A DNA stretch of 44,618 nucleotides from NCBI GenBank assembly GCA_043809245.1, contig JAZDDZ010000009.1:1-44618 (forward strand), given 5' to 3'. This DNA comes from Candidatus Iainarchaeum sp. Its GTDB lineage: Archaea; Iainarchaeota; Iainarchaeia; Iainarchaeales; JAZDDZ01. Shown in pieces: positions 4,213 to 32,769 of the stretch; within the stretch, counting starts at the first letter, position 1; the number at the start of each line of letters is the position of its first letter. The position numbers were made by a program, and so were the translations under genes. Below the pieces are notes generated by a model, which saw nothing but the letters and a program-made list of their open reading frames with translations, was not told the DNA's origin and did no database searches.

Positions 4213-7173
4213 ATGCGCAGACTCCTGCTTTCACTTGCCCTGCTGTTGCTGTTTGCACAGATTGCCTTAGCCGAAGAGCTGATAACGTATGCGGGAGGCA
4301 TTGACACAATCGCGCAGATAGATGGGGGAAACTATTACGCATCCAGATATAACGCGCCGCCGCTTGGCTCGACTAAAACGGAAATAAAAAAAACAACAGT
4401 GAAAGGCGTCCACGAATGGACAAGATGGTATGCCCCTGATCCCGCGGCCGTGGACATATACATGACTGGAATCCTCTACCTGTGGGCGTCGTCGATGAGC
4501 ATTTCAGGCGATTCAGCGCAGTACAGGGCAAGCATTTATGATTTCAATCCCTCAACAGGCTCAAGCACGCTGATTGCACAAAGCCAATGGAAAAGCATGG
4601 CGAATGGAAGCAATGAAACAACAATTCCGTTTGCAGCCGCATACAGGCTTCTCGCCGGGCGAGTAATAAAAATGGTCATGGACTACAATGCTTCAAATGG
4701 CGGCGGGGAAGTAAAGCTGACAGTTGACGAAACGCAAAGCGGCGCGCACCTTGGATGGGAGTTGTCAAACGGCAAAAGCTATGCGTTAAGCAATGTCGTT
4801 TCAACTGCAGCCGCATACATGCCAATTTGCTTCAGCGCAGTGCAGTGCTCAATTAATGCAAACTGCGACGACGGAAGCGCGGCAACACAGGATTTATGTG
4901 AAAACGCGGGAAGCTGCAATGCAAGCTGTTCGCACGCCCCTGTGCAGGGGGGAACTGTTGCATGCAGCTCGAATGCGGAATGCAACGACAATAACGCAGG
5001 AACAACAGATTCATGCAATAACCCCGGAACAGAATCATCTTATTGCTCTCACACGCCAATAGTTAACCACTTCAGTGACCAGAACAGCGGGCAGACCCCT
5101 GCTGGAAATGACGCATGCGTTATTGTGTGCAGGTCGGACAGCGACTGCAACGACAAAAACCCAATAACCACAGACTCCTGCACCGGCGCAGGAACATGCA
5201 GTTCAGCCTGCTCAAACCAGGCCTGCACAATTGCATGCAGCGCAAACAGCGACTGCGATGACAGCAATCCATTGACATCAGATGTTTGCTCGGGTTCGGG
5301 AAAATGCGATGCTTCTTGCTCGCACAGCAGCTGCACGCCTGCGTGCTCGGCTAACGCGGATTGCGATGACGGAAACCCCGCAACAAAAGACGTTTGCGCT
5401 GGGGCTGGAAGATGCAGTGCAATATGCAGCCATCTTGAAAAATGCGGAAACGGAATCATTGACCCTGGTGAAACGGAATGCAATTGCCCGGATGACGTGC
5501 AAAAAACCTGCGGGGGAAATGCGCCCTCCAAATGCCAGGAGTATGCCTGCATTGGAAACAACTGCCAGATTGTTCCAAAACTCGGGTGCTGTGGAAACAA
5601 TATCTGCGAGCAAAGCGAGGACTATGGAAGCTGCCCTGCTGACTGCGAGCCGAAAAAAATTACAGTTGATGTTTCAGACATTGACGGAAGAACCTATTAC
5701 CTCAGGGGCGAAACAGCGCGAATCAAGGCAGTTGTAACCGCAGACGGCGTGCCAATAAACAGTGCGTCAGTTAAAATAAGCGGTTCATTCGGCGAAAAAA
5801 CTTTTTTCAACGACGGAACGCATAATGACGCCAGGGAATACGACAACATTTATACCGCTTTCATTCCCATTGGAAAAGAACAGGCTGAGGGGACGATTGT
5901 TGCGGCAGTAGAAGCGGTTGTCGGCAGGAGAAAAGGATATGCCGCAAAAACAATTGCAGTGAAGCCTGCGCTTGACCTGCAGCTTTCAACCGACAAGGAA
6001 AATTACAATCTGGGGGATGAAATAATGATAACTGGCGTGCTCAGGCGCAGAAACAATGCGTTGCAGCTCCCGATTGACTTCAACATTGTGCAGGAAAGGA
6101 AAACCGTGCTTTCAAAGGAAATTGTTCCGGAAGCCGACGGCTCATTCCGCATAACATACCACACAAGCCTTTTGGACAGGCAGGGGAAGTGGGCAGTCAA
6201 TGCATTTGCAATCGACGAAAACGGCAACTATGCCGCAATAAGGAAAGACCTTAATTTTTCCTCGCCGGAAATAAAAAGCTTTCTTTCGGTTGAAGTGCAG
6301 AACGCAAAAGAGGTTTACGAAAAGAACAGCGACCTGAACCTCATAGTGCTGGTGAAGCGCGCTGACGGAAGCCTTGCAGACGGAGCGGATGTGGAAATTC
6401 TTTTTCCGGGGCTGCTTCCAATCAAGCTTTCCCCGCTTGGAACCGGGCTTTACGCCTTGAACGCAAAGGTGCCGATTAATGCCCCTGCGGGAAAACAGGA
6501 AATAGGTTTCAGTGCGATGAAGCTTGACTCCGGTGTTTTATCAGGGGGGAATGCATCGGTTGAAATAGAGATAAAGGCAATTGAATTCAAAACAGAATTC
6601 CTTGAGCCATCAAGCCCCATATTCCAGGCGGGAGAGGAAATGCCCATAAGGGTGCGCTTGACTTATCCGAATGGCGAGCCGGCAAGCAGGCTTGACATCA
6701 ATGCAACTGTAAACGGAAAAACAGTGGTGCTTACCGCTGTGGCGCAGGGAATCTATGCTGGGAAATATATTGTAGAGGAAGGCGACACTGGAAACGTTAA
6801 GATAAGCATCAGCGCGGCTGATGCGGGAAACAATTTTTCAAGCAAGGAAACAGAGATTGAGGTGTCAGGCGTATCTGTTCTTTTTTACCTGAGGAAATAT
6901 CCCTTAAGCATAGTGCTATTAGTTATCGCGGTTGTAATAGGCGCATTCGGCACCCAGCGGCTGTTAAAGGCAAGGGGAAACGCGAAGGGGCTGAGGAAAA
7001 GGGAGGCTGAACTGATACAGCTTGTCAAGGAAGTGCAGCTGCAGTACTTCAAAGAGGCCTCGCTTGACAAAAAAAGCTATGACAGGCTAATGAACCAGTA
7101 TGAAACAGAATTGTCAGAGACAAGGAAAAAGGCTGCGGCGCTTGAAAGCAAACTGAAGCAAAAAAAAGGCTGA
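4213..7173 (+). CDS. Large single-pass surface protein A (986 aa): signal peptide, N-terminal beta-rich domain, Cys-rich repeats, Ig/MG2-like domains, TM helix, SHOCT-like tail
   Basis: Signal peptide MRRLLLSLALLLLFAQIALA. Five C..N.DC(D/N)D.N..T.D.C...G.C...C repeats and CGN-type repeats. FNDGTHNDAREYDNIYTA (choice-of-anchor-X-like) and LSTDKENYNLGD (MG2-like). TM helix, then QLQYFKEASLDKKSY. Confidence 0.85.
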   Translation: MRRLLLSLALLLLFAQIALAEELITYAGGIDTIAQIDGGNYYASRYNAPPLGSTKTEIKKTTVKGVHEWTRWYAPDPAAVDIYMTGILYLWASSMSISGDSAQYRASIYDFNPSTGSSTLIAQSQWKSMANGSNETTIPFAAAYRLLAGRVIKMVMDYNASNGGGEVKLTVDETQSGAHLGWELSNGKSYALSNVVSTAAAYMPICFSAVQCSINANCDDGSAATQDLCENAGSCNASCSHAPVQGGTVACSSNAECNDNNAGTTDSCNNPGTESSYCSHTPIVNHFSDQNSGQTPAGNDACVIVCRSDSDCNDKNPITTDSCTGAGTCSSACSNQACTIACSANSDCDDSNPLTSDVCSGSGKCDASCSHSSCTPACSANADCDDGNPATKDVCAGAGRCSAICSHLEKCGNGIIDPGETECNCPDDVQKTCGGNAPSKCQEYACIGNNCQIVPKLGCCGNNICEQSEDYGSCPADCEPKKITVDVSDIDGRTYYLRGETARIKAVVTADGVPINSASVKISGSFGEKTFFNDGTHNDAREYDNIYTAFIPIGKEQAEGTIVAAVEAVVGRRKGYAAKTIAVKPALDLQLSTDKENYNLGDEIMITGVLRRRNNALQLPIDFNIVQERKTVLSKEIVPEADGSFRITYHTSLLDRQGKWAVNAFAIDENGNYAAIRKDLNFSSPEIKSFLSVEVQNAKEVYEKNSDLNLIVLVKRADGSLADGADVEILFPGLLPIKLSPLGTGLYALNAKVPINAPAGKQEIGFSAMKLDSGVLSGGNASVEIEIKAIEFKTEFLEPSSPIFQAGEEMPIRVRLTYPNGEPASRLDINATVNGKTVVLTAVAQGIYAGKYIVEEGDTGNVKISISAADAGNNFSSKETEIEVSGVSVLFYLRKYPLSIVLLVIAVVIGAFGTQRLLKARGNAKGLRKREAELIQLVKEVQLQYFKEASLDKKSYDRLMNQYETELSETRKKAAALESKLKQKKG
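4828..5650 (+). repeat. Cys-rich protein repeat array (Dictyostelium CTDC/Myxococcus Cys-rich-like); bounds approximate
   Basis: Examples: CSANSDCDDSNPLTSDVCSGSGKCDASC, CSANADCDDGNPATKDVCAGAGRCSAIC and CGNNICEQSEDYGSCPADC. Confidence 0.8.
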
Positions 7174-7178
7174 AAAAA

Positions 7179-9767
7179 ATGAACAGGCGGCTTCTTTTAT
7201 TTTTCGCTTTGATTGCGCTTATTTCATTCGCGTGCGCCGCGGAAAACGTTTTCTGGCTGAGGGGAAACGACTTAAGCGCAATGCATGAAGGCGGCAGTTA
7301 TTACTTCATGGCGAGTTCTTTTCCCACAAGCACTTCGCACAAAACAGAAATAGTTAAGCAGAACAGCCCTGAACCGATTGAAATAGCGAGATGGTATTCA
7401 ATCAGCTTCTCACAGAGGCTGCTTGCAACAGGAAAAATCGAGGCATGGTTTTCAGGCCTAATTGCGGAAAATGGCTCCGCAGAATACCGCTGGACGCTTT
7501 ACGATTTTCAGACGGATAAAAGCACAAAGATAGTGCAAAGCGAATGGAGCCATGTTCCGTTTGGCGGAGAGGCAAAAAATGCTGCAGAATTGGGAGGCCT
7601 GTATGCGATTGAAAAAGGGCATAAGCTGAAACTGGTGCTTGAGGCAAAAGGAACCGCGGGAGGTAGGACAAGGCTTTCGCTTGACGAAGGAGAACTCAAC
7701 GCATCCGTCGCATTCAAATCCCTTTTCGGAGAAACATACAGTGTTTCAAATGTAAAGAATTCTGCGGCACTTGCGCTGAATCTATGCATAAGCATTGCCT
7801 GCGGAAATGATTCTGACTGCGATGACGGAAACCCCTTGAGCGCGGACATCTGCGTTAATGCAGGAACATGCAGTGCCGCGTGCTCAAACGAGGAATGCAA
7901 AACAGGCTGCAAGGCGGATTTCGAGTGCGCAGACGGAAACCCCTTCACCACTGACAAGTGCATTGGAAAGGGAAGCTGCGATGCAAAATGCGCAAACAGC
8001 GAATGCACTCCGAAATGCTCATCGGACAATGAATGCAAAGACGGCCTTAACGCAACGGTTGACGAATGCATTTATCCGGGAACATGCATTGCATACTGCA
8101 AAAGCACGGTCTGCGAACCCGCGTGCTCAGATGACGGGGAATGTGAAAATGGAATGGTGTGCGCGGACGCGGGAAAATGCAGCGCTAAATGCATTCAGCA
8201 AATTTCATGCGGCAACGAAAAATGCGAAAAATATGAAAATCCGGAAAATTGTTCGGCTGACTGCAAAACAGGGCAAGGCATATCAGTCGACGTGCTTGAG
8301 CCGAAAAAAGGCGAATTCTTTCCAAGGGGGGAAAAAGTGCTTGTAAAGGCAAGGGTTGAATCGGCTTTCAGCGATGTGAGAAACGCAATTGTTACCGCAA
8401 TAGGCCCTTTCGATGAACTCGCGCTTTCCAATGACGGAAGCAACGGCGATGAAAAGCCTGTTGACAATGTTTTCACGGGATATGCAACTATTTCAAAAAA
8501 CGCAGCGGACGGCGCAAACGAGATGACAATACAGGCAAAGGCGGGAAACGCCGGCGGCTTCAGCAAAACAAGCATTATTGTTGCGCCAATAATTGACCTT
8601 GAGCTGAACACAGGCAAAAATGATTACATTATCGGCGAGGAAATAATAGCAAGCGGCAGCGCGTCAATCAGGGGAAACCCTGCAAAAGCCACTGTCAACA
8701 TCTCAATAAACGCAGGGGGAAAGGAAATCACGCAGCAGTCAGTGGAAACAGACGGCTCAGGCGCTTTCAGCTTCAGGTTCCGCTCCCTTGCACTTCACCC
8801 CCTTGGAAACTGGCTGATTTCCGCAAGCGCGGGCGATGCAAGCGGGAACTCGGGAAAAGCGGAAAAAGAAATAGAGGTAAGCGCACCCAACTTTACAAAC
8901 CCGCTGCAAATACAGTTCACAAATGAATTAAATGCAGAATTCAAGAGAGGGGAAGAGCTCGGCTTCTACATAGCACTCAGGAATCTTGACAAAAGCCCAT
9001 TCAGCGGCGCATTTGTATACATCACGCTTCCATTCGGCTCCACCTTGAAAGCCGAAGAGGAAAACAGCGGCATTTACACTGCAAATGCAAGGATTCCCAT
9101 GGATGCGCCGGTTGGAAAGGGCAATGGCAGGATAACCGCTTTGAGGATTGACGGAGAAACTGTTTACGGCGCTGAAAAAAATTTTGAACTGGAAATACTT
9201 GACGCAGAAATACTGCTGAAAATGATTGAATTCAATGAAGGCACGGAAAAAATGGCAGGCGAAACCATTCCCCTGAAATTCAGCGCAGTTTATTCCTCTA
9301 ACGGTGAAACGCTTGAAATGCCGGCAATCGCAAAAATAGGCGGCCACCAGGTGGAACTTGAAAAGCAGGGGCCTGTTTTTTTAATCAACTACTTTGTGGA
9401 GGAGCGCGATGTCGGAAAAAATGCGCTGCTGCTCACAATTGAGGACTCCTTTGGAAACAATGCGGAGAAAATGCTCGGCGTGAAAGTCAGCGGGGTCTCG
9501 GCGCAGTACTTCTTCCTCAAATACATTAACCTTATCTTTATTGGCGCAGGGCTTATTGGGCTTTGCGCATTGGCAATAATCATGCGCAAAAGGATTGGGA
9601 AAGAAAAAAACAGCGGCACGCGGCTGACGGAAAAGCAGATAATGGAGGAAATAAAAGCCGTACAGACAAGGTATTTTAAGCGCGGCGCTGTCTCAAAGGA
9701 AAAATATTACGCGGAAATGAACAGGCTTGAGTCAGAGCTGGCTGAGCTCAAGGGGGAAAGCAAGTGA
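7179..9767 (+). CDS. Large single-pass surface protein B (862 aa), paralog of A
   Basis: Same order of modules. The N-domain shares GG.YY, KTEI.K, RWY and YR...YDF with A. 3-4 Cys repeats, then LSNDGSNGDEKPVDNVFTG, a TM helix and the tail VQTRYFKRGAVSKEKY. Confidence 0.85.
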   Translation: MNRRLLLFFALIALISFACAAENVFWLRGNDLSAMHEGGSYYFMASSFPTSTSHKTEIVKQNSPEPIEIARWYSISFSQRLLATGKIEAWFSGLIAENGSAEYRWTLYDFQTDKSTKIVQSEWSHVPFGGEAKNAAELGGLYAIEKGHKLKLVLEAKGTAGGRTRLSLDEGELNASVAFKSLFGETYSVSNVKNSAALALNLCISIACGNDSDCDDGNPLSADICVNAGTCSAACSNEECKTGCKADFECADGNPFTTDKCIGKGSCDAKCANSECTPKCSSDNECKDGLNATVDECIYPGTCIAYCKSTVCEPACSDDGECENGMVCADAGKCSAKCIQQISCGNEKCEKYENPENCSADCKTGQGISVDVLEPKKGEFFPRGEKVLVKARVESAFSDVRNAIVTAIGPFDELALSNDGSNGDEKPVDNVFTGYATISKNAADGANEMTIQAKAGNAGGFSKTSIIVAPIIDLELNTGKNDYIIGEEIIASGSASIRGNPAKATVNISINAGGKEITQQSVETDGSGAFSFRFRSLALHPLGNWLISASAGDASGNSGKAEKEIEVSAPNFTNPLQIQFTNELNAEFKRGEELGFYIALRNLDKSPFSGAFVYITLPFGSTLKAEEENSGIYTANARIPMDAPVGKGNGRITALRIDGETVYGAEKNFELEILDAEILLKMIEFNEGTEKMAGETIPLKFSAVYSSNGETLEMPAIAKIGGHQVELEKQGPVFLINYFVEERDVGKNALLLTIEDSFGNNAEKMLGVKVSGVSAQYFFLKYINLIFIGAGLIGLCALAIIMRKRIGKEKNSGTRLTEKQIMEEIKAVQTRYFKRGAVSKEKYYAEMNRLESELAELKGESK

Positions 9768-11032
9768 AAAAAAATTTCAAGTTCGCGCTTTTTGCGCTGG
9801 TTTTCTGCGCGCTGATGGCTTTTGCTGGCGCTGAAAACATTTCAATTGCGGCAAATGCGAGCATGGAAAAAGGGCAGATGCTTGAAATGCACGGCTCATG
9901 CGCAAGGCTGGCGTTTGTCGCGCTTTCAGCCACTTCAAGTGACGGCAAAAAAATATTTGAGAACGAAATCCAGTGCACGAGTGCAGGGGATTTCTCGTAC
10001 ATTTATGGCACGAGCTTTCTTGACCCTGCGGGGGAATGGGTTTTGGCCGCGGAAAGCGCGGGGGAAAAAGCCGAAACAAGCATAAGTGTTTTGGAAAAGC
10101 CAGAAAGCCAGTTTTATTTGATAACTTTCCTGAGCCCCAGCGCAACGGAATACAAGAGGACAGATGACATAATCATCAGCGTGAAGGTGACTGATTCGGG
10201 AAAGGCTGTTGATGACGCCAATGTAATTGCTTGGGGCGTTGAAGGAAAAAGGATTCAGCTTTACGGAAACGGGAATGGCAACTATTCCACAACCTACGGG
10301 CTTCCGTTTGACGCTGAACTCGGTGAATGGGTGCTGACCGTGGCTGCCGATAAAAAAAGCGAGTCACTTTATGCGGGCGGGGAGAACAGCATTTCATTGG
10401 CTGTTGCAAAGGCGAGGATAATAATTGATGCCTTGGAGCCAAGCCTTGAGACATACCAGTTAAGCGAACCGATTCCGCTGAAAGCAAGTGCGGTGTACTC
10501 AAGCGGGAAAAAATTGGCTGGCGCAGGGGAAAAGCCGAAAATCACTGCAAGAATCGGGGAAAACGAGGTTTTGCTGCAGCAGGTTGACGAGAATTTTTTC
10601 GCGGGATCCTATGAACCAAGGGGAGAGGACTTCGGTGAAATTGCGATTGTGTTCAGCGCAACGGACGAGGCGGGAAACACAGGGGAAACCCTGAAAACCG
10701 TTATCACGACAAACTATTGGGGCTGGTTCCTCAAAAACAATTTGCTTTTCTTTGTCGTTGCAATTGTTCTGGCTGTTTTGCTCGCGAGGTTTTTTTATTC
10801 AGGGGCAAAATACTCGATTATGGGCAGCAGGCTGAAAAACGAGAAAACACAGACAGAAGAGCTTATTAAAAGCCTGCAGCGCGAGTACTTTGAGAAAGGG
10901 GTTATGCCCGCGGGAACCTACAAGGAAAACCTTTCAAAGCTGAAAGCAAAGTTAACGGAATTGGATGCAAGGATAGCGGACATGGAGGCATTGGAGGAAA
11001 AAAAGAAGAAAAAGAAAAAAGGCCTTGTGTGA
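9764..11032 (+). CDS. Single-pass surface protein C (422 aa), short paralog with only the Ig/MG2-like domains
   Basis: Signal peptide; SFLDPAGEWVL matches SLLDRQGKWAV (A) and LALHPLGNWLI (B). TM helix, tail LQREYFEKGVMPAGTY and a poly-Lys end. Start overlaps the stop of B (GTGA). Confidence 0.85.
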   Translation: MKKNFKFALFALVFCALMAFAGAENISIAANASMEKGQMLEMHGSCARLAFVALSATSSDGKKIFENEIQCTSAGDFSYIYGTSFLDPAGEWVLAAESAGEKAETSISVLEKPESQFYLITFLSPSATEYKRTDDIIISVKVTDSGKAVDDANVIAWGVEGKRIQLYGNGNGNYSTTYGLPFDAELGEWVLTVAADKKSESLYAGGENSISLAVAKARIIIDALEPSLETYQLSEPIPLKASAVYSSGKKLAGAGEKPKITARIGENEVLLQQVDENFFAGSYEPRGEDFGEIAIVFSATDEAGNTGETLKTVITTNYWGWFLKNNLLFFVVAIVLAVLLARFFYSGAKYSIMGSRLKNEKTQTEELIKSLQREYFEKGVMPAGTYKENLSKLKAKLTELDARIADMEALEEKKKKKKKGLV

Positions 11033-11080
11033 AAGTATTTTATATGTGGAAAAAGAAATGTATTAGGGCAAGGGCTGCAA

Positions 11081-12319
11081 ATGGCGGATGAAGAGAAAAA
11101 AAAGGCACTGGCAGAGGCAACTGAAAGGCTTCTGAAAGACTTGAAGGACGAGGGCGAAGTCCTTTCAAACCTAAAGGACATTGGGGTGGGCGAGGAAGAA
11201 GCCAAAAAAATGATTGATGACGCAAAGAAAAAAGGGATAACCGCTGAAAAAAGCGCGGAACAGGAATGGGGCGGGTTAGGCAAGGGCCTTCCCGCAAAAA
11301 AACTGCTTGAAAAAGAGGACATGTTCTGGTCAAAGCCATTGTTCCAGAAAAAAACAAAAGCCCCTGCAATGGATGAAAAAAGCGGCAAAAAAGGGGAAAA
11401 ACACATTTTTGGCGGAATGAAATTTGGGGGCAAAAAAGGGGAAAAGCTTGATGAAGTGCTTCCTGAAAAAAAGGAAAAGGCAAGGCATGAAGCAAAAGGA
11501 ATTAGCAGCAGGAGCAGCGGAGGAGGGGGAGGCGGAGGAGGAATTGAAAGGGAAAGGGAAAAGGCGCGCTTCCGCGAGGTAATGCCTGTAAGGGTGAGCG
11601 ATTTTGACAGGCTGATTGAAAAAGGCGGGTTAAAGAGAGGCGACACAGTGCTTTTAAGCGGCGGCTGCGGCACTGGAAAAACTACTTTTGCAATGCAGTC
11701 AATGTATAACGCGGTTCTTGCAGGGGAAAAAGCCGTTTATTTAACGCTTGAGGAAACCGCGGAAAAAATAAAGGAAAACATGTACGAGAATTTTGGCTGG
11801 GACCTTTACACCTTGGAAGAGGAAAACAAGATTGCAATAATCAAAATCGACCCCCTAAGCATTGCAAGGGCGGTTGAAGCGGCTTTGACAAAGGAAAGAG
11901 GCGGCCTTTACATAGAGCTTGAGGAATTCGATTTGCCTTTCCAGTTCAATTTGCCGTTCAAGCCGGACAGGGTTACAGTTGATTCCTTGAGCGCGTTAAG
12001 CATTGCGTTCATGGAGAACGAGCAGGGATACAGGCAATACCTCAGGCATCTTTTTGAAACGCTTGAAAAATACAATTCAGTGAACATTGTTTTAGGGGAA
12101 ACAGAACAGCAGCCGAATGTTTACAGCAGGAGCGGAGTCGAAGAATTCTTGGCGGACGGAGTCATAGTGCTTTACAACATCAAAATACACAACTTGAGGG
12201 AAAAGGCTTTGGAGATATTAAAGCTCAGGAGCTCAAACCACGAAAAGCGAATTGTTCCATACAAAATATGCGACAGGGGAATAGAGATTTACATAAACCA
12301 AAGTTTGTTCAGGGAATGA
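11081..12319 (+). CDS. KaiC/RAD55-like ATPase 1 with N-terminal helical module and Lys/Gly-rich linker
   Basis: GGLKRGDTVLLSGGCGTGKT, YLTLEE, VTVDSLS, GVEEFLADGVI and LEILKLRSSNH. Confidence 0.9.
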   Translation: MADEEKKKALAEATERLLKDLKDEGEVLSNLKDIGVGEEEAKKMIDDAKKKGITAEKSAEQEWGGLGKGLPAKKLLEKEDMFWSKPLFQKKTKAPAMDEKSGKKGEKHIFGGMKFGGKKGEKLDEVLPEKKEKARHEAKGISSRSSGGGGGGGGIEREREKARFREVMPVRVSDFDRLIEKGGLKRGDTVLLSGGCGTGKTTFAMQSMYNAVLAGEKAVYLTLEETAEKIKENMYENFGWDLYTLEEENKIAIIKIDPLSIARAVEAALTKERGGLYIELEEFDLPFQFNLPFKPDRVTVDSLSALSIAFMENEQGYRQYLRHLFETLEKYNSVNIVLGETEQQPNVYSRSGVEEFLADGVIVLYNIKIHNLREKALEILKLRSSNHEKRIVPYKICDRGIEIYINQSLFRE

Positions 12320-12351
12320 AAGTTAAAGCAAGAAAAAAAAGGGAAATGCGC

Positions 12352-12735
12352 TTAATCAATTTCTTCCATTTCGGCTTCTAACTGTGTGACCTTGGTGATT
12401 TTGTCCTTGACCTTGTCAATCTGTTCCTTTAAGCGGTTTCTTTTAAGGCTTAATTCCTCTTCTTTTGCGACAAGCTTTGTGACCTTGTTTTTCAGTTCAA
12501 CCTGCTGGTCCTGTGTGGAAGAAATGGTTCCTGCAACTGACTGCAGGCCGCGTTCCGTTGAAATTTTTTCCAAGCGCAGGCGCTCCAGTTCGGCTTCAAT
12601 GTCCTTCAGTGCCTCTGAAAGAAGCGAGTGGGTTTTAACCTGCTTTGCCACTGCAGGGGACTTTTTCTTATTTTTTTTAGCGGGTTTTTTTGCCGCTTTT
12701 CTGGGCTTTGAAGCCTTTTTCTTTTTCTTTGCCAA
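12352..12735 (-). CDS. Coiled-coil protein with Lys/Ala/Pro-rich basic N-terminus
   Basis: MAKKKKKASKPRKAAKKPAKK followed by ~90 aa of heptad pattern; TTG start. Confidence 0.75.
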   Translation of the reverse strand: MAKKKKKASKPRKAAKKPAKKNKKKSPAVAKQVKTHSLLSEALKDIEAELERLRLEKISTERGLQSVAGTISSTQDQQVELKNKVTKLVAKEEELSLKRNRLKEQIDKVKDKITKVTQLEAEMEEID

Positions 12736-12821
12736 TCAAAACACCGAAACCAAGAATAAATGTGCTAACATATAGAGATTGTTATCGTTTAAAAACTTTA
12801 CCATTCGGTTTTCCTTACTTT

Positions 12822-14546
12822 CTAGCCTTTCCTTAGCATTTCCTCTATTTTTTTCTTGTCCTTTGAATAGGCGTCCTTGGAAACAACGCCCAATGCATAG
12901 CTCCTGTTCAGGGCAAGGAGCTTTTTTTCAAGCCTGTGCATTAATTCCTCGTGCTCTGCCTTTTTTTTCTGGGCAAAACGCTGTTTTTTTGCAAGAAGGT
13001 TGCGGTGGTTTTTTTCCTCAACCGAAATCTTCCTTCTTTTTGCAATGTGCTTCTCCATTTCCCTGAAGCGCAAGTCAAGCATGTTCAGGTGCTGCTTTAA
13101 TTCCTTTTTGATCGAGGGCTGCTGCTTTATGCTGTTTATTTTCTTTGCGAGCTTTGAGAGGTCAACCGTGACTTTTGGGGCCTTTTGAACCTGCGCCGGC
13201 TGTTTTTCAAGCTTTTCAATTTTTTGCTCAAGGCGCGAAAGATGCTCTTTCAAATCATCCTTTACCTGCGGCTCCTTTTTCAGCTTGTCCATTTTCAATG
13301 CAAGGCGCTGCATTTCCCTTTGAACGATTTTCTTCAAGGCTGTTGTCTGCGCCTCAATCGCCTGCACTTTTTGCGCTGAAGCCTTTTCATAAACAGGCTC
13401 CTCGAACCGCACTTCCTTCAGCAGGCCGGAAATTTTTTCCATGCGCGGCTTTTTCGCAAAAGAAGGCTTGCCAAAAGCAGGGCCCTCCAGTGAAATGAGG
13501 GAAAATTCATCCAGTGAAAGCGAGTCATCAATGAACATCCCCAAATCCTTTACTGCCTCCGCGTTCTGGTCAGAGTCAAGGACTGTGAAGACGCCGTCAA
13601 CGGAATTCGTGCGCACCTTGCCGATAAGCGAGTGCATGAACTTTGTCACTGTTGAAGGGTTTTCGTAAATCAAAAGCGTTGAAAGCGAATCCAAAAGAAT
13701 TGCGTCGGGCCTCTGCTTTGCCAGAACATCGGAAATCGCAAGGCTCAGCTCGATCAACGCGTTTGGCGAGGAAACAAAAACGCAGTTGCTGCGCGGCTCG
13801 ACAATTGCCTGCGAGGTCTTTGTAATCGCGTCAATCAGGAAAAACCTTTTCATGTCAATGCCTGCATCCGCAAAAGACCTGAACAAGGAATCACAGCGGT
13901 CATTCAATGAAACATAGCACACAAGGGAATATGTTTCAGCCATTGTCTGCGCCAGCTCCACAATGCTTGAAGTGTAGCCCTTGCTTGGAAGCGCTACAAG
14001 CGTTATCCTGGAATGCCTTGAAGACAGCTTTTTTGCGCTTTTCTCAGGAACAGCGATTTCCTTTTCCTTGGCGGGAACGAAAACAATTTTTTTCTCAGCA
14101 GCGGCTTTAAGCTCAAATTCGGGAAGTTTAAGTTCGGCTTCATCTGAAGGTTCAATGGTTTCTGGTTCCAACCCGCTTTCCTCTTCCCCTTTCTTTTTTT
14201 CCTCAGCGGCTTTTGGCGCAGCGGGCTTTTCAGGCAAAGAAATGAACGGCTTTTCAATGAAAGAGGAAATGATTTCCTTTTCCCGTTCCTCCTGCTCCTT
14301 TTTTGGCTCTGGCTTTGGCGCTGGCTGTGCTTCCTGCACCGGCATTTCTTCCCCTTCTTTTGCCTCTTTCTGCGCTGGAATTAATTCCGTTTCCTTTTTC
14401 GCGTCCTCTACAATGGATTGGGCTTCCTCAAAGGAAATTCCCGCAAGGCCTGACATCTCCGAGGCAATGTCCTGGACTGAAGCGCCTTCCTTCAAAAGCT
14501 TTTTGGCTGAATCAAGCAAAAGCTCCCTTTTTCCCATAGATAACAA
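12822..14546 (-). CDS. Multidomain protein: N-terminal helical module, acidic linker, P-loop-less KaiC/RecA-fold domain, coiled coil, SHOCT-like C-terminus
   Basis: VCYVSLND, FFLIDAIT, ILLDSLSTLLIY, VTKFMHSL and GMFIDD are present but there is no Walker A. C-terminus LNRSYALGVVSKDAYSKDKKKI. Confidence 0.8.
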   Translation of the reverse strand: MLSMGKRELLLDSAKKLLKEGASVQDIASEMSGLAGISFEEAQSIVEDAKKETELIPAQKEAKEGEEMPVQEAQPAPKPEPKKEQEEREKEIISSFIEKPFISLPEKPAAPKAAEEKKKGEEESGLEPETIEPSDEAELKLPEFELKAAAEKKIVFVPAKEKEIAVPEKSAKKLSSRHSRITLVALPSKGYTSSIVELAQTMAETYSLVCYVSLNDRCDSLFRSFADAGIDMKRFFLIDAITKTSQAIVEPRSNCVFVSSPNALIELSLAISDVLAKQRPDAILLDSLSTLLIYENPSTVTKFMHSLIGKVRTNSVDGVFTVLDSDQNAEAVKDLGMFIDDSLSLDEFSLISLEGPAFGKPSFAKKPRMEKISGLLKEVRFEEPVYEKASAQKVQAIEAQTTALKKIVQREMQRLALKMDKLKKEPQVKDDLKEHLSRLEQKIEKLEKQPAQVQKAPKVTVDLSKLAKKINSIKQQPSIKKELKQHLNMLDLRFREMEKHIAKRRKISVEEKNHRNLLAKKQRFAQKKKAEHEELMHRLEKKLLALNRSYALGVVSKDAYSKDKKKIEEMLRKG

Positions 14547-17115: not shown

Positions 17116-18981
17116 CTATGCCTCTAAAAGTTTTTTCGGTTCAATGCCTTTCTCTGCAGCGGCAATAACGGCTTCCGGCTCTGCATAAAACAGTTTCATT
17201 ACCTTGCCCACTTCATTTACATCGGATAAATTGGATTCAAGCATCCATTGGAGTATTTCCGCGCGCTGCAAAACATCCTTTCCAATTTCCTGCGTTGTCA
17301 TGCCTGTGTGCATGTTCAACTGCTGCATCAGGCGCCTTGGCTCATTGACCTTGTCCCAGCTATCGTCCCTTGGAGACCATTTGTAAATCGTGTTGATATT
17401 CAACTGCTCGCCTGAAACACCTGATTCAAGCTCAGCGATTTCGTAAGTGCGCCTGACATTTGTGCGGCGGTCGCGGAACTGGACCAAAACAAGGTCCAAT
17501 GCCTCGACTTCCAAAGGAGGAATGGAAATAGGCGGTTCAATGAGCCTGCGCAAAACCTGCTGCGCTGAATTCGCGTGCAAAGTGCTGTAAACAGAATGCC
17601 CTGTGTGCATTGCCTCAAAAAGGACTTCGGCTTCCTTTTGCCTCCTTATTTCACCCAAAATTATCCTGTCAGGGCGCATGCGCAAAGAGGAAAGGAGAAG
17701 GTCAAGCATTGAAACCTCGCCCAATCCTTCAGGGTTTGGGTTCCTTGTTGTCATCGGCAGCCAGTTCCACTGCAAGTAATCAGGCAAGGTTATTTCCCTG
17801 ACGTCTTCAATAGATATGATTCTGTGATAGGATGGCATGAAAGCCGCGAGGGAATTAAGGGCGCTGGTTTTCCCTGAAGCGGTTCCGCCTGCCACCACAA
17901 TATTTAATTCATACTGGATTGCAAGCCAGAGCAGCGCGGCCATTTCAATGCTCATTGTGTGCGCTGAGCCAATGAAGTCAACCATTGTCCAGGGGCGCCT
18001 GGAAAAACGCCTAATCGTTATCGTGTTTCCGAAAGAGGTTATGGGAAAAAGCGTTGCATTAACCCTGTCCCCGGTCAAAAGGTGCGCGTCAAGGATTGGG
18101 GAAAGGTTTGTTATTTCCCTTCCGACTTTTCGCGCAATCTGCGAGGAATAATTCGCTATTTCTTCCTCGCTTTCCAAGAACTGGTTGGTTTTCATCCATC
18201 CGAATTTCCTGTGGTAAACTGTCACTGGTGCCTTTGAGGAATTGATTGCGACTTCCTCCAAGAGATTGTCTGCCATCAGGAGCTCAAGTTTTCCAAGGCC
18301 GTACATTGAGTGCAGCAGGCTGCCGGCAAGCATGTCAATGAGCTTTTTGTCCCCTGTGGGAAAAAATTCCTCCAGTTCCTTTTTCGCGGTCGCGAAAAAC
18401 CTTTCCTTAAGCTGTTTTCCCTTTACCGCGTCGGTTACATCGGAAATGTCCACGGGAATTTTTTCCGCAATTGATTCGCGCAATCCCTCCAGAAAAATCT
18501 TGGTATATGATGCGAGCACTGGAAAATTTATTTCATAAAAAGGCCTTAGGTCCTCGGGCGACCGCAGGATTCTTACATCCGCCTCGACAAAGTCAACGTT
18601 TAAATTATATGACTCTAAGACTTCGCCGCCAACGCGTTCAACAAAAGCCTCTGGAATGGATTTCCTGAATGCAATGCGCGGCTGCTGCACCATTGTCGCG
18701 GGATACTGCACATCAACCAGGCCCCTTGCTTCAAGCATTTTGCCAATGCGCTCAACAGACTGAACGCTCAAGCCGAGCTTTTTTGAAATGTCCTTGAAGG
18801 AAACCGCCTTCTTTTGCTGCACCGCTTCCATCAGCAAATCAATTTTGGTGCTGAAGCCCTTCACTTTTTTTCCGTCAACCTTTTTCGCCTTTATCTCTTC
18901 GCGTTTCAGGTCCTGTGGCTTGAAAGCCCACACCTCATCTTTTTTGGAAGAAGCTCCAGCGGTTTTTTCTTTTTCAGCCAT
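17116..18981 (-). CDS. Type IV pilus assembly ATPase (TadA/CpaF/VirB11 family) with extra N-terminal wHTH
   Basis: AGGTASGKTS, ISIEDVRE, LRMRPDRIILGEIR and HTGHSVYSTLHA. Start taken as ATG 18981 (alternative 18990). Confidence 0.95.
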   Translation of the reverse strand: MAEKEKTAGASSKKDEVWAFKPQDLKREEIKAKKVDGKKVKGFSTKIDLLMEAVQQKKAVSFKDISKKLGLSVQSVERIGKMLEARGLVDVQYPATMVQQPRIAFRKSIPEAFVERVGGEVLESYNLNVDFVEADVRILRSPEDLRPFYEINFPVLASYTKIFLEGLRESIAEKIPVDISDVTDAVKGKQLKERFFATAKKELEEFFPTGDKKLIDMLAGSLLHSMYGLGKLELLMADNLLEEVAINSSKAPVTVYHRKFGWMKTNQFLESEEEIANYSSQIARKVGREITNLSPILDAHLLTGDRVNATLFPITSFGNTITIRRFSRRPWTMVDFIGSAHTMSIEMAALLWLAIQYELNIVVAGGTASGKTSALNSLAAFMPSYHRIISIEDVREITLPDYLQWNWLPMTTRNPNPEGLGEVSMLDLLLSSLRMRPDRIILGEIRRQKEAEVLFEAMHTGHSVYSTLHANSAQQVLRRLIEPPISIPPLEVEALDLVLVQFRDRRTNVRRTYEIAELESGVSGEQLNINTIYKWSPRDDSWDKVNEPRRLMQQLNMHTGMTTQEIGKDVLQRAEILQWMLESNLSDVNEVGKVMKLFYAEPEAVIAAAEKGIEPKKLLEA

Positions 18982-19025
18982 AAAAAACAACCTATTCTAT
19001 TAGGGAATTGGTGCTTTTAAATTTA

Positions 19026-21212: not shown

Positions 21213-24200
21213 TTAACCGTAAGAAATCTCTACGCCGACTGCATCAAGGCGCCATGAGCCGTTTGCAGAGCCGACGCGGTTGTAAATGCCGCCTATTTTA
21301 AGGTTAGAGAAATCAGACCACTGCCATGCTCCGCCGCCTGGGCGCAAGGAAAAAACGTCAACGCTTTCAATGGCGCCTGGGTCTGTTGACATTTTGTTGG
21401 CAGGGGTGTTAAGGTAATCATAAGTCAAGGCGGTTGACTGGTCAAAACTTGATAGGCCATAAGTCAAGGAAACAGAGTCGTCAAGCATTCCGCCAATGCT
21501 CTGCACGGTTATATTCACATCGTTGAGGTAGGCTGTGCCTGCGCCGTTGCCGGAAAAATATGCGATGTACTGAATGAACTGGTTCTCGTCATTCACTTCC
21601 TGTGGTGTTGTGATTCTTGGCTCACTCCAGTCAGTCCAGGTTATTCCGTCAGCGGATGTTCGGAACGATAGGCTTAGGCTCTGGCTGTTAAGCGTGGAAT
21701 TGAAGTCTAAAGAAAGGATTGTCACAGCTGACCCGAAGTCAAGCGCGTTGGAAGTGTAGGTGCCGCCGAAATAATAAGGCGATTCTTCTGCGCCGACTGA
21801 AATGTTCAAATGCGAATTGTAGTAAAACCTTCCGTTGCTGCTGTTGGTTTGCAGCCTTCCGTTGCCTGCGCCAATCACCAAATCGCGGTAGCTGTCTGCA
21901 TCCAAGTCAACGAGGAAAGGCGCTGCCCTTGTTCCAACATCAATTGTTGCACCGTCAGACTGCGCCAAATAATTTGAAAGGCTGACTGTTTCCCAGGAAG
22001 GAGAGGAAGCAGAGCCAATGTTTCTTACAAGGTAAAGGCGCCCGGTGCTTTCCCCTACAATCAGGTCAAAGTCTCCGTCTTCGTCCAAGTCCGCGAATGT
22101 CGGGGCTGCATTGGAGCCGAAGTCCTGTGAAGGCATTACCCCTGAAACCTGGCTCCAGGAAGGCGCGGAAGGGGTGCCGGTGTTGCGCAGGAAAGCGATT
22201 GTTCCGTCGCTCAGGCCGATTGCTAGGTCAAAGTTGTTGTCGTTGTCAATGTCAACGAATGAAGGCGATGAATCAGTGCCGAAATCAGTTGCAGGAAGGT
22301 TCCATGAATACGCCTGCCATGCTGGAACTGCAGCTGTTCCGGTGTTGCGCCAGCCGTTGTTAATGTTTCCTGTATTTTCCCCTACGACCAAATCCTTGTC
22401 ACCGTCATTGTCCAAGTCAGCGAAGGCAGGAGTGGAATTGCTTCCCACATCAGTGTTAGGCAGCTGTGCATTGTCCGCTGTCCAGGAAGGGGAAGAAGGG
22501 GTGCCTGTGTTGCGCCAGACATTGTTGAAAATTCCGGCATTGTCCCCTACAACCAAATCAAAATCTGAATCCGCGTCAAGGAAATCGGAGAATAGCGGCA
22601 CGGCATTTGAGCCTATGTCGTTTGTCGGCAGGGCATTTGCACCTGAGTCAAGCCAAGTGAGGGAATAATTCGGAATTGAATAGCCGGGGTTTGCCGCGGA
22701 GGAATTGCCGTAGTAAACATGGTATGTTGCGGAATTGTTTGCGCTGATTGTAACGCCGAACTGGATTTTGCAGGAAGGGGAAACTGGGTTTGAGCCGTTG
22801 TCTGAGAGAATGCGCACAGGGATCTCTACGTTCGCATCCGTAATCACCCTTATTTCATTGGCGCAGCTGTCAATGTGGCTTGCGTCAAAGGAAAGCGTTA
22901 AATTTGTCTGCTGGTTTGAACGGCTTACTCCCCTATTTTCTGTTAAAAGCACAGGCAGCCTGTAATTCCATTGGCTGTTCCACCAGCCGCTTTTGGCAGA
23001 CAATGCGACTTCGCCGTTGTCAATGTGCGTTAAAGTGGTTTGGCTGAAGGATTCCGTTCCCTCATTGAAGTCAGCGGAAGTTGTTTCAAAAATAGATGAC
23101 TGCGAGGTTGAGGGGGTTGAAACTTCGTGGCTCCATAAAATGTTTAATGCAACTATGTTGCCGCTCAGGCCTGAAACGTCAAAGGCGTATCCGCCCAAAG
23201 AGTTTCCGTTTGAGGAATTGAATGAAATGTCAGGCGCCCCAGTAACGCTTGAAGTGGAATTGCAGTCACCCCAGTTGCAGGAATTGATCGCCCAGCGGAA
23301 AACAGTTGTTGCCTGCACAACGGTTATCGTCAAGGCAATGGAATCACTGTTGCCGTCGGCATCGGAAACATTTATTGTGCCAGTGTAAGGGCCTGTTGCC
23401 TGAAGAGGCGGGACAAAAAGGTTTATGTCTGCGGTTGCGCACTCTCCAGCGGCAATTGATGCGATTGGAGAAATTGGCTGCGCGAAATCCCCTGCGTCTC
23501 CGCTTGAAGGCGTGAAAGTGATTGAATCCATTGTTGATGTGGAATCATTGCACACGTTGAATGTTTTAACCGAGGAACTTCCGCGCAGGATTGTTGCGGT
23601 CCAAGCGCTAGGCAGAACAACCAGCGCGCCCGTTGTGCCTGTGCCTCCCTGCTGTGAAACCTCAACGCTTAAGGGCACAACAATGTTCTGGTCATAGGAG
23701 GAAAGGTGCACGTTAACCTGAACGCTTCCAGTGTATGCGCCGACAGCGGAAGCGCCAGAGGAAAAGTTTGTGTCAAAAGTTAAAGCGCTGCCTTGTGGAA
23801 TGGAAAAATTTGCGGATGAAAGGGAAAGGGAGACATCGGGATTGCTCCAGACTGGAAGAATTGTGGCAATTGCTTCGCCGGGAGAATAGTTTGTAATTGT
23901 GATTGTTTTGCCTGCACTTGAAGAGGAAAGCATTGAAAGCGAAACAGAGTAAGTGTCAAGGACTGCTTCCTCTGAGCCTATTGAAACGTAAGAGCCCCTG
24001 CTTTCAACCCAAACCAGGTGGCCCCCTGGAGTTGTTGGAAAAGAGCCTGAAAGCTGCACTCCGGGGTCAGCAAAGAGGTCTGTTCCCGCGACATTGAAGA
24101 CAATTGTGCTGTTTTCAATTCCTGTTTTGCTTTCATCAGTGCCATTGGGAATTGTGACAAGGACCTGTTTTCTTGCGCCAAAGCCCTGCGCGTAAACGTC

Positions 24201-24377
24201 TTTCGCTGCATTAGCCAAATCGTTTGCGCTGGTTTTCGCGGTTTCAAGCTGTTTTTGGATGTCAATAGTTGTTGCCTGCTGGAATCCAAAGGAAAGGAAA
24301 AACAACAGGATTACTAGCGATACGGCGAGGATTATCATTAGCTCTACTGAGCTCTGCGCATTGCCTGGCTTTTTCAT
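21213..24377 (-). CDS. Giant pilin-adhesin (1054 aa): class III signal, Ig-like domains, DUF2341-like domain, five FG-GAP/DxDxDG repeats
   Basis: MKKPGNA/QSSVELMIILAV; WWNSQWNYRLPV...YHVYYGN; five repeats such as PAFADLDNDGDKDLVVGENTG...WRNTGT. Confidence 0.88.
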   Translation of the reverse strand: MKKPGNAQSSVELMIILAVSLVILLFFLSFGFQQATTIDIQKQLETAKTSANDLANAAKDVYAQGFGARKQVLVTIPNGTDESKTGIENSTIVFNVAGTDLFADPGVQLSGSFPTTPGGHLVWVESRGSYVSIGSEEAVLDTYSVSLSMLSSSSAGKTITITNYSPGEAIATILPVWSNPDVSLSLSSANFSIPQGSALTFDTNFSSGASAVGAYTGSVQVNVHLSSYDQNIVVPLSVEVSQQGGTGTTGALVVLPSAWTATILRGSSSVKTFNVCNDSTSTMDSITFTPSSGDAGDFAQPISPIASIAAGECATADINLFVPPLQATGPYTGTINVSDADGNSDSIALTITVVQATTVFRWAINSCNWGDCNSTSSVTGAPDISFNSSNGNSLGGYAFDVSGLSGNIVALNILWSHEVSTPSTSQSSIFETTSADFNEGTESFSQTTLTHIDNGEVALSAKSGWWNSQWNYRLPVLLTENRGVSRSNQQTNLTLSFDASHIDSCANEIRVITDANVEIPVRILSDNGSNPVSPSCKIQFGVTISANNSATYHVYYGNSSAANPGYSIPNYSLTWLDSGANALPTNDIGSNAVPLFSDFLDADSDFDLVVGDNAGIFNNVWRNTGTPSSPSWTADNAQLPNTDVGSNSTPAFADLDNDGDKDLVVGENTGNINNGWRNTGTAAVPAWQAYSWNLPATDFGTDSSPSFVDIDNDNNFDLAIGLSDGTIAFLRNTGTPSAPSWSQVSGVMPSQDFGSNAAPTFADLDEDGDFDLIVGESTGRLYLVRNIGSASSPSWETVSLSNYLAQSDGATIDVGTRAAPFLVDLDADSYRDLVIGAGNGRLQTNSSNGRFYYNSHLNISVGAEESPYYFGGTYTSNALDFGSAVTILSLDFNSTLNSQSLSLSFRTSADGITWTDWSEPRITTPQEVNDENQFIQYIAYFSGNGAGTAYLNDVNITVQSIGGMLDDSVSLTYGLSSFDQSTALTYDYLNTPANKMSTDPGAIESVDVFSLRPGGGAWQWSDFSNLKIGGIYNRVGSANGSWRLDAVGVEISYG

Positions 24378-25784: not shown

Positions 25785-25928
25785 GAAACCACTAAAATAA
25801 AGAAGTTCAACAAATTTAAGGCTGTCGGTGAATTAAAAGGCAAAGGCAAAGGCAGGCAAAGCCTTTTTTCCCTGAACTGGATGAATCTTTTTTAAAAACA
25901 GGTGTGCCTTAAATTAAATAGGTTAAAT

Positions 25929-26549
25929 ATGCCCGGCAAGGAAAAGGAATTAGCGGAACTTGAAGCGCTTCTTGCGGAAATGAAGGAGATGAACGTACAG
26001 CTGAAAAACAAAATCGGCTCGCTGGAGGACGACTTCATCGGGCTGATGATAATAAACGAATTGAAGCTAGCGGAAGCGGGAACAGAGCTTTTGAGGATTT
26101 TAAGGCACGATGAAAATATGCCCGGCATCTATATCACGGCAAACAAGCCTTATGCCACAATGGTAAAGCACCTTGAAAAACAAAAGGTTGACATTGAAGG
26201 GATATTCTTCATTGACTGCGTGAGCCATGAGGGAAAAAACAGCGCAATAAAAAATGATTCATGCGTAGTGGTTGACGGCCTCAAGGAATTGACGCAACTG
26301 GAAATAGCGTTCGAGAAGGCAATAAAGGGCGCAAAAAACAACGAAATTTTCATAGTGCTTGACTCTATTTCAACGCTTATGATATACCATGACGCGAAAA
26401 TAATTGAAAGGTTCATCCATTCCACTATTACAAAGATAAGGGAAAAAGAAGGAATGCGGGCCTTTTTCATCGCGGTTGACTCGCATGAAAACGCGCCGCT
26501 GATTACAAGCATAGCGCAGTTCTGCGACAAAGTAGTGAAAATAGATTAA
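25929..26549 (+). CDS. P-loop-less KaiC/RecA-fold protein
   Basis: GIYITANKPY, FFIDCVS, IVLDSISTLMIY, IERFIH and AQFCDKVVKID; no Walker A. Start taken as ATG 25929. Confidence 0.8.
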   Translation: MPGKEKELAELEALLAEMKEMNVQLKNKIGSLEDDFIGLMIINELKLAEAGTELLRILRHDENMPGIYITANKPYATMVKHLEKQKVDIEGIFFIDCVSHEGKNSAIKNDSCVVVDGLKELTQLEIAFEKAIKGAKNNEIFIVLDSISTLMIYHDAKIIERFIHSTITKIREKEGMRAFFIAVDSHENAPLITSIAQFCDKVVKID

Positions 26550-26557
26550 AAAAAAGC

Positions 26558-27280: not shown

Positions 27281-27288
27281 GGAACAAA

Positions 27289-32700: not shown

Positions 32701-32769
32701 ATGCAGGAAATTGGGCTGAAATGATAATAAAAAAGAATAGGCGGAAAAAACATATAGGTGCATTGAAAA

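Follow-up and report, generated by a model that had tools for sequence, protein, structure and literature searches.

KaiC ATPases and C-terminally anchored, Cys-rich S-layer-like proteins have been described in archaeal type IV pilus loci (Makarova, Koonin and Albers 2016, PMC4858521), and inactivated KaiC domains are named in the accessible text of PMC5847659. Here, we analyzed a locus of the same kind and with the same gene classes, which is located at positions 4213 to 14546 of a window that comprises an entire 44.6-kb contig (44,618 nucleotides, JAZDDZ010000009.1) of the 1.48-Mb genome of Candidatus Iainarchaeum sp. The subject is a short cytoplasmic tail at the end of three membrane proteins (A, B, and C) and its relation to the C-terminus of a KaiC-like protein (D) that is encoded nearby, together with a second KaiC-like protein (E) and a small protein (cc). 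The accessible portion of the pilus paper presents the same gene classes but makes no mention of a shared cytoplasmic tail or of a link between the anchored proteins and KaiC. The closest relatives of the window genes belong to Candidatus Iainarchaeum or Diapherotrites, a DPANN lineage.

DPANN archaea depend on cell-cell contact. We know of no account of how their surface proteins communicate with the cytoplasm, and to our knowledge only few inputs are known for archaeal KaiC-like proteins. Reportedly, it was proposed by Makarova, Galperin and Koonin in mBio in 2017, a paper that PMC5847659 and PMC6393860 cite, that KaiC-like proteins, including inactivated forms, serve as archaeal signalling hubs. 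The window is reminiscent of such a system in that D lacks Walker A and is encoded together with the active-type KaiC protein E, and in that further KaiC/DUF7504 pairs occur in the window. The literature on DUF7504, the SHOCT domain, and KaiC or surface proteins of DPANN archaea, within a scope that did not include the mBio paper of 2017, yielded no description of tails of the A/B/C type or of their link to KaiC.

Our preferred reading, to which we give an about even chance as a whole, is that the four tails are short helix-loop-helix hairpins of two kinds, which are related to each other but not the same, that the A/B/C trio would make up the cytoplasmic side of a surface complex and be coupled to the KaiC pair of E and D, mainly via the KaiC/DUF7504 body, and that the C-terminal extension of D would serve cc or a lineage-specific contact. 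Taken by itself, a coupling of A, B, and C to KaiC-type proteins is likely. What the analysis shows is that the motif exists and is conserved, that a hairpin fold is predicted for it, that the genes are linked, and that the copy numbers follow a pattern. A conserved cytoplasmic domain of this small size, which often occurs three times per locus and in at least two phyla is genetically linked to a pair of active and inactive KaiC, would be a candidate for the missing link, and the SHOCT superfamily would gain a defined context at the cytoplasmic termini of single-pass membrane proteins and on one soluble partner protein. The features of the locus are as follows:

4213..7173, plus strand: gene A, surface protein of 986 amino acids (aa) with a signal peptide, 40 Cys in Cys-rich repeats, an MG2-like Ig domain, a C-terminal transmembrane (TM) segment, and a cytoplasmic tail
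7006..7125, plus strand: A tail core (residues 932-971), A/B/C-type hairpin, profile match at an independent E-value (iE) of 2.4e-14, Ala at the glycine position
7179..9767, plus strand: gene B, 862-aa paralogue of A with 30 Cys, an MG2-like domain, a C-terminal TM segment, and a tail
9633..9752, plus strand: B tail core (residues 819-858), A/B/C-type hairpin, profile match at iE 8.8e-14
9764..11032, plus strand: gene C, shorter paralogue of 422 aa with an MG2-like domain, a C-terminal TM segment at residue 327, and a tail
10847..10966, plus strand: C tail core (residues 362-401), A/B/C-type hairpin, profile match at iE 4.9e-16
11081..12319, plus strand: gene E, KaiC-like ATPase with an intact Walker A and a small N-terminal helical domain common to D
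12352..12735, minus strand: gene cc, 127 aa, Lys-rich N-terminus and coiled-coil C-terminus, weak coiled-coil Pfam matches only
12822..14546, minus strand: gene D, soluble DUF7504 KaiC-like protein with a small N-terminal domain, a linker, the core, a long coiled-coil region, and a C-terminal SHOCT-like hairpin
12825..12944, minus strand: D tail (last 40 residues), D-type SHOCT-like hairpin, assigned by family alignment, sub-threshold Pfam matches, hhalign, and AlphaFold2

The A/B/C-type and D-type tails

An earlier note, made from the sequence alone, had taken the C-termini of A, B, C, and D for one SHOCT-like motif shared by three membrane proteins and one soluble pseudo-KaiC. All four tail strings that it quoted are present exactly at the C-termini of the respective open reading frames (ORFs). 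A, B, and C are encoded head to tail on the plus strand. Each of them carries a hydrophobic signal segment at the N-terminus and a single C-terminal hydrophobic 19-mer (Kyte-Doolittle value, KD, of 2.26-2.69) that is followed by a charged tail of 44-72 residues; in A, the two hydrophobic segments are found at residues 6 and 896. No hydrophobic segment at KD >= 1.6 was found in D and E. The MG2-type Ig matches in the ectodomains of A, B, and C are sub-threshold (for A, PF01835 with E 3.2e-6, under the cut-off), and homologues of C are represented by P0002 and P0003. E matches PF06745 above the cut-off (E 8.7e-49, 166.4 bits) and carries the Walker A sequence GGCGTGKT at residue 194, which identifies it as a KaiC protein with predicted ATPase activity. 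D matches DUF7504 (PF24336; E 6.5e-9, 36.9 bits at a cut-off of 27) and reaches just 20.8 bits with KaiC PF06745. Since no GK[ST] occurs anywhere in D, it is without Walker A and belongs to the inactivated KaiC-like (DUF7504) proteins. Its database twin begins 3 codons later (571 aa).

Within the own genome, a loose regular expression of the A/B/C motif matched A, B, and C only (12,403 six-frame ORFs of >= 50 aa), and the tail profiles likewise matched only these three. As A, B, and C are paralogues, the tail that they have in common reflects common descent and not independent coincidence. The 39 A/B/C-type tails that were collected, which come from the window and from 19 loci related to it, are of fixed length and do not vary at Q, F, and the second Y; the first Y is nearly invariant. 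The 40-residue tail core was more conserved than the ectodomain in 25 of 25 orthologue comparisons; for C and 14 of its orthologues, the identities are 38-65% in the tail core and 28-39% in the ectodomain. The A/B/C-type hairpin family, which is unnamed and was defined in this analysis, thus presents as a cytoplasmic domain of ~45 residues with the core LQxxYFxxGxMxxxxY...Y..xL that is located just inside the membrane. A, B, and C conform to the family definition, which is Q-x-x-[YC]-[FY]-x(3)-x-[MLI]-x(4)-[YF] within ~45 aa after a membrane helix and usually at the C-terminus. Between the end of the tail core and the C-terminus there are 15 residues in A, 4 in B, 21 in C, and 0 in D.

A 48-column profile built from the 39 A/B/C-type sequences retrieved 779 cluster representatives at E <= 1e-3, including 135 at E <= 1e-10, from 1.84 billion proteins. 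Among the best 149 of these 779 representatives, one copy of the domain is present in 28, two in 85, three in 35, and six in 1; the distance from the last copy to the C-terminus is at most 60 aa in 132 of the 149, and 96 have a hydrophobic segment no more than 60 aa before the first copy. A typical representative of ~1370 aa is composed of a signal, an ectodomain, a TM segment, two copies, a TM segment, a loop, a further TM segment, and one copy. Copy numbers and placement after membrane helices therefore point to an independent, repeatable domain and not to a by-product of one protein family. Judged by its profile matches, the A/B/C-type domain is widespread in DPANN-type archaea. An ancient fixed identity of A, B, and C was considered as well but dropped, since sub-profiles gave the copies from a second phylum no clean one-to-one orthology. 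For the C tail, the ESM Atlas gave generic helical matches only.

The tail of D belongs to a family of its own. Its last 37 residues are strongly kept in the D family, in which 21 of 23 homologues end with LEKKLxLLNxSYxLGvISxxAYxKDKxxIExLLKK and about nine have a second tail copy upstream, and an alignment of 18 D-family tails shows E, L, N, G, Y, K, and E to be invariant. Outside of these D homologues, the D-type hairpin is the tail of a membrane protein in 12 of 13 further ORFs, which stem from the phylum of the loci L045 and L048 (see below); as these 12 have TM segments, D carries a module that is typical of the ends of membrane proteins. In the second phylum (L124, L125, L127, L128, L187, L191, L192), the D-type hairpin is also located at the N-terminus and is then followed by a membrane helix, and D-type hairpins therefore mark cytoplasmic ends in both orientations.

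The two kinds of tail do not find each other when a hidden Markov model (HMM) is searched against sequences. With an HMM of the A/B/C tails, D was not found at E <= 100, and with profiles of 40 and 33 sequences neither tail family detected the other at iE < 1. Profile-profile comparison of the A/B/C with the D tails gave a local hhalign P of 1.3e-4 at a score of 19.7, and a second hhalign setup gave P values of 4.9e-3 and 1.5e-3 with probabilities of 7-17%. None of 150 column-shuffle controls reached the observed score (maximum 14.5 vs 19.7), and among 69 windows along the D-family alignment it was the C-terminal one that scored best against the A/B/C profile (17.8; elsewhere at most 11.8). 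A bridging representative, P0125, aligns positions 4-35 of the D profile (32 positions) to an A/B/C-type copy with one residue inserted after Tyr, from which the register L-[NQ]-x-x-Y, (F), x-x-G-x-h-S-x-x-x-Y follows. The alignment proposed in the earlier note was therefore right for helix 1 (L-[NQ]-x-x-Y) and becomes right for helix 2 (G-x-h-S-x-x-x-Y) once it is shifted by one residue. Its idea of one motif in four proteins holds for A, B, and C by regular expression and profiles, whereas the case for D is much weaker: D is not reached by HMM searches against sequences and is linked to the other three only through profile-profile comparison.

With regard to the fold, AlphaFold2 predicted for the B tail (52 aa, 39-row alignment) helices at residues 2-24 and 30-51, with a predicted local distance difference test score (pLDDT) of 89.6 and a predicted TM-score (pTM) of 0.71, and for the D tail helices at residues 2-17 and 23-39 with a pLDDT of 95.9 and a pTM of 0.69. 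The predicted loop is situated at xGxhS in both cases (RGAVS in B, LGVVS in D). Thus, B and D tails are both predicted to be helix-loop-helix hairpins, in agreement with the claim that the tails adopt the same fold. A Foldseek search of the PDB with both hairpin models listed generic hairpins and nothing at E <= 0.001, and a sequence search of solved structures with the D-tail and canonical SHOCT profiles gave designed coiled coils or chance matches only (E >= 0.013). The core of ESCRT-I (Vps23/Vps28/Vps37), in which three two-helix hairpins from three proteins pack together, can serve as an analogy only: both tail models superpose on it (TM-score by query 0.8-0.9), but the Foldseek E-values are >= 1.9 and helical hairpins are generic, so that the superposition does not speak for a relationship. 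A predicted complex of the B tail and the D tail received scores of 0.08 and 0.06 vs a mark of 0.32 in a run without controls, and counts neither way.

The SHOCT domain, to which the four tails had been compared, is described as a stretch of ~30 residues with two predicted amphipathic helices joined at a glycine that occurs nearly always C-terminally and on many unrelated proteins, and its hallmarks are a Gly and a Glu that are both strongly conserved and the absence of indels (PMC3581485). The D tail has the canonical spacing L-x-x-[YF]-x-x-G-x-[IV]-[ST]-x-x-x-[YF], the predicted B and D tails consist of two helices over ~30 residues, and all four tails are located within ~50 residues of the C-terminus. 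However, none of the four reaches the Pfam threshold (PF09851, gathering score 27 bits): the SHOCT model gave nothing at E <= 10 with A, B, C, and D, neither as whole proteins nor as tails, and nothing in the six frames of the window contig. The comparison with Pfam SHOCT that the earlier note had suggested as a check thus yielded no match for the tails themselves and sub-threshold matches for relatives of D, which were 6 of 18 D-family tails (best E 3.1e-5) and, in a six-frame search of 151 genomes of one phylum, two D homologues (L101 and L109, with 22.3 and 19.9 bits). The 13 above-threshold domains of the latter search were used as canonical SHOCT set. Compared with this set by hhalign, the D family gave P values of 6.4e-6 and 9.4e-5 in ungapped alignments over 27-28 columns and the A/B/C family 1.1e-3 and 1.4e-3 in an alignment that requires a one-residue insertion, whereby none of 150 column-shuffle controls reached the observed score here either. 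For the 39 A/B/C tails, 78 Pfam families gave matches, none of them to more than 7 tails, and the 25 families with the most matches do not include SHOCT.

Regarding the hallmark residues, the SHOCT glycine is invariant in the 18 D-family tails, whereas A has Ala and the second-phylum A/B/C copies mostly have Lys or another residue at this position. The Glu after the Gly, which is present in >= 90% of the canonical SHOCT set (GEI), is lacking in both families, since the D family has V/I/M/L and the A/B/C family A/V/S/T instead. Furthermore, the A/B/C family differs from SHOCT by its own invariant Q, F, and Y and by a third conserved segment. The SHOCT likeness is thus supported for D (spacing, sub-threshold matches, hhalign) and is only marginal for A, B, and C (P ~1e-3, insertion, Gly not conserved). 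On sequence grounds, the A/B/C tail appears to resemble D and SHOCT weakly. The view of SHOCT as an oligomerisation domain, on which the docking idea of the earlier note was built, found no backing in the paper that defined the domain, the accessible part of which reports an experiment that did not support this hypothesis (Eberhardt et al. 2013, PMC3581485); the premise consequently goes back to a hypothesis whose one test gave it no support. The most frequent Pfam match for D-family tails is not SHOCT but GvpG (PF05120; 17 of 18 tails, best E 5.9e-5, all sub-threshold). The D-family tails align to positions 32-66 of the 67 positions of this model, which is the C-terminal half only, D reaches 17.6-17.8 bits vs a cut-off of 30.6, and D is a KaiC-like protein and not a GvpG.

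A six-frame SHOCT search of the own genome gave two weak matches, on the contigs C54 and C6, of which the one on C54 was rejected as a false positive in an EF-1-alpha-like GTPase region. False matches of the SHOCT model to this region (GALSEQEYRKLK) occur in many genomes (L001 at C54:20193-20246, L102-L104, and L106). Another family of anchored proteins of the phylum searched for SHOCT (L096, L099, L100, L105, L107; 750-816 aa) has a different ectodomain and one or two cytoplasmic SHOCT-like motifs, which are nearer to canonical SHOCT (Pfam E 1e-5 to 4e-4).

Gene linkage, copy number, and the extension of D

The order phosphoglucomutase (PGM)-A-B-C-D-cc-E is conserved in the Iainarchaeota loci L003-L024. 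E orthologues are mostly 75-82% identical among Iainarchaeota loci (three at 56-57%), and orthologues of A to D show 23-50% identity. The D-cc-E block of the window (11081-14546; E+, cc-, D-) is inverted compared to L007 (9041-13179) and L013 (9131-13266; D+, cc+, E-), whereby A-B-C and the pilus genes, which flank the inverted block, keep their orientation. In L010 (2607-5587, between PGM and B), no ORF of >= 150 aa was found on the expected strand where A should lie; the gene is maybe masked or degraded.

In 80 loci centred on a DUF7504 core, at least one A/B/C-type tail was found in 23 (iE < 1e-3) and a D-type tail in 17. In the second phylum, A/B/C-type tails are present in 27 of 151 genomes, and for 14 of the 20 second-phylum loci that were taken from the tail, KaiC and/or DUF7504 genes are located within 20 kb, often adjacent. 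Three tail copies per locus recur in different arrangements. They are distributed over three proteins (1+1+1) in the window, L003, L007, L013, L016, and L019, and in 13 of the 20 second-phylum loci a large protein carries two copies in tandem and a smaller protein encoded next to it carries the third (2+1); one or two copies are carried by 7 of the 20 loci. Since copies are fused in some lineages and separate in others, with three copies in a single chain in 35 of the 149 best representatives, a joint action of the A, B, and C tails is indirectly supported, and to this extent the earlier claim that they associate is strengthened.

The same note had let D dock onto A, B, and C through its tail. 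In L017, L020, L021, and L024, the DUF7504 protein has a length of 201-295 aa and ends right after the core without any tail, and the A/B/C-type tails of these loci keep their invariant residues; in L020, L021, and L024 the gene of the short DUF7504 protein abuts E. In a tree of E, L024, the starred sister of the long-D locus L015, is placed apart from the L020/L006/L017 group (support 87/88), and L021 is unplaced. A/B/C tails are conserved beside a tail-less DUF7504 in at least two independent Iainarchaeota lineages. In the second phylum, a D-type tail was found in none of the 20 loci, 11 of which hold DUF7504. Because the A/B/C tails stay conserved where D has no tail, in Iainarchaeota and in the second phylum alike, tail-to-tail docking of D is not required. 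With the cc profile, 14 of 14 long-D loci and 0 of 66 other loci were matched, and the presence of cc only together with a long D suggests that cc partners the extension of D.

Probable coupling to KaiC-type proteins and alternative explanations

We suggest that the three A/B/C hairpins could jointly form the part of a surface-protein complex that faces the cytoplasm, and that this complex may be coupled to the pair of KaiC (E) and pseudo-KaiC (D), either for signalling or for anchoring and assembly. The contact would more likely be made on the KaiC/DUF7504 body than on the tail of D, because the association persists where D is tail-less. The coiled-coil plus SHOCT-like extension of D more likely works together with cc, given their strict co-occurrence, or it may add a lineage-specific second contact.

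Several observations weigh against this reading. In L045 (Nanoarchaeota label) and L048 (Woesearchaeota label), an anchored ectoprotein is encoded directly upstream of a DUF7504 protein of 251-259 aa, and the two neighbours have near-identical D-type tails (iE 9e-14 and 5e-14; 1e-12 and 2e-14), so that these pairs fit a tail-to-tail matching better than docking on the body. The identity of the C tail to that of the window is 38-55% in short-D loci vs 55-65% in eight long-D loci at a similar ectodomain identity, with 50% in L009, which has an intermediate D of 485 aa; given the lower identity in short-D loci, the C tail could sense the extension of D. Furthermore, the background for the proximity to KaiC genes, which is that KaiC-family genes occur in 15% of the 20-kb windows of the window's own genome, was taken from a single genome outside the second phylum, and genomes that are related cannot be counted as independent samples. 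No KaiC or DUF7504 gene was found in the DNA examined for 6 of the 20 second-phylum loci, of which L175 and L177 are short whole contigs of 11-13 kb. The number of three copies is not kept in L017 and L023, which have one, or in L020, L021, and L024, which have two. In the anchored family with the SHOCT-like motifs (extended as L113-L117), 0 of 5 loci have KaiC or DUF7504 within ~8-10 kb, which also led us to reject the notion that every SHOCT-like anchored protein is encoded beside a KaiC gene. Moreover, gene linkage as such is also compatible with co-regulation without contact.

The neighbours in L045 and L048 with their shared D-type tail and the somewhat lower conservation of the C tail where D is tail-less would also agree with an explanation in which all four tails are one SHOCT-like oligomerisation module, so that the hairpins of A, B, and C bundle and the hairpin of D joins them, by which the pseudo-KaiC is docked at the membrane. 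It would fit that both tail types are predicted hairpins with the loop at the same xGxhS position, that the profile similarity is specific to the C-terminal window of D and is bridged by P0125, that the D-type tail is elsewhere carried by membrane proteins (TM segments in 12 of the 13 further ORFs), and that the tandem and 2+1 arrangements suggest a packing of the copies. We nevertheless regard this explanation as unlikely. Beside tail-less DUF7504, A/B/C tails keep their invariant Q, F, and Y both in the second phylum and in the at least two Iainarchaeota lineages, neither family is found with the HMM of the other in sequence searches, the extension of D co-varies with the cc gene and not with the A/B/C tails, and the SHOCT experiment, as far as it is given in the accessible part of PMC3581485, found no oligomerisation. 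It might also be that the resemblance of the A/B/C and D tails is a convergence of unrelated Lys/Glu-rich hairpins, and that the A/B/C tail, as a generic juxtamembrane element, serves topology, sorting, or binding of the membrane surface and has no specific KaiC-like partner. The cross-family similarity is indeed marginal (probability 7-54%, P 1e-4 to 5e-3), Foldseek gives generic hairpins only and none at E <= 0.001, other anchored proteins have SHOCT-like tails away from KaiC genes, and KaiC-family genes are common in the genome (15 ORFs). What makes this explanation rather improbable to us is that invariant Q, F, and Y and a fixed length in 39 tails, together with 779 representatives, exceed the needs of a topology signal, that KaiC or DUF7504 is nearby in 14 of 20 loci as opposed to the 15% background, that three copies per locus are recurrent, and that P0125 provides a bridging alignment over 32 positions.

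The least probable of the explanations considered here is that the tails connect the surface proteins to the type IV pilus machine, for example to the TadC-like platform or the ATPase, and that KaiC and DUF7504 are pilus regulators and not partners of the tails. A complete pilus locus lies directly beside the module in the window as well as in L007, pilus genes are located upstream of the module in L023 and L024, and KaiC ATPases as well as C-terminally anchored Cys-rich proteins are known from archaeal pilus loci (PMC4858521). In L013, however, the ORFs after E have no T2SSE or T2SSF match, and A-B-C-D-cc-E is nevertheless intact. As an extension of the coupling via the KaiC/DUF7504 body, one could imagine, although we consider it quite improbable, that the A/B/C hairpin is a docking domain in a fixed trio (1+1+1, 2+1, or three in one chain) with one hairpin per E-D pair, which would plug the surface complex into an alternating E/D ring. 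Changes of the ring that are driven by ATP or phosphorylation would then be passed to the surface or in the reverse direction, as in an adhesion switch made of KaiC components, and the SHOCT-type hairpins of D and of other membrane proteins would constitute a second, homotypic address code for this hub.

Neighbouring genes and further observations

On the far side of D, the module adjoins a complete set of pilus genes, and the same neighbourhood is found in the complete-genome locus L007:

14649..18990, minus strand: archaeal type IV pilus genes, encoding a pilin with class III signal peptide, two T2SSF (TadC-like) proteins, and the T2SSE ATPase, assigned by Pfam

The pilus ATPase T2SSE (17116-18990, minus strand) has sub-threshold matches to the winged-helix families MarR and HTH_24 at its N-terminus, and a 1054-aa protein with FG-GAP repeats (21213-24377, minus strand) is encoded at the distal end of the pilus gene block. 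Of the 15 KaiC-family ORFs of the genome, 7 are located on the window contig. Here, KaiC, DUF7504, KaiC, and DUF7504 genes follow each other at 24720-27972, and another DUF7504 gene is present at 32071-32868, which has no A/B/C-type tail gene adjoining it.

The N-termini of E (11081-11250, plus strand) and D (14380-14546, minus strand) have a helical domain of ~50 residues in common, with the pattern KKxxLxxAxxKLLxxxxxxxxIxxxLxxxGxxxEEAxxxxxxAK. This domain has no significant Pfam match (one weak match, E 0.54) and is absent from the short DUF7504 forms. In E and D, it is followed by a linker with FW..K..FW and GGK-like motifs.

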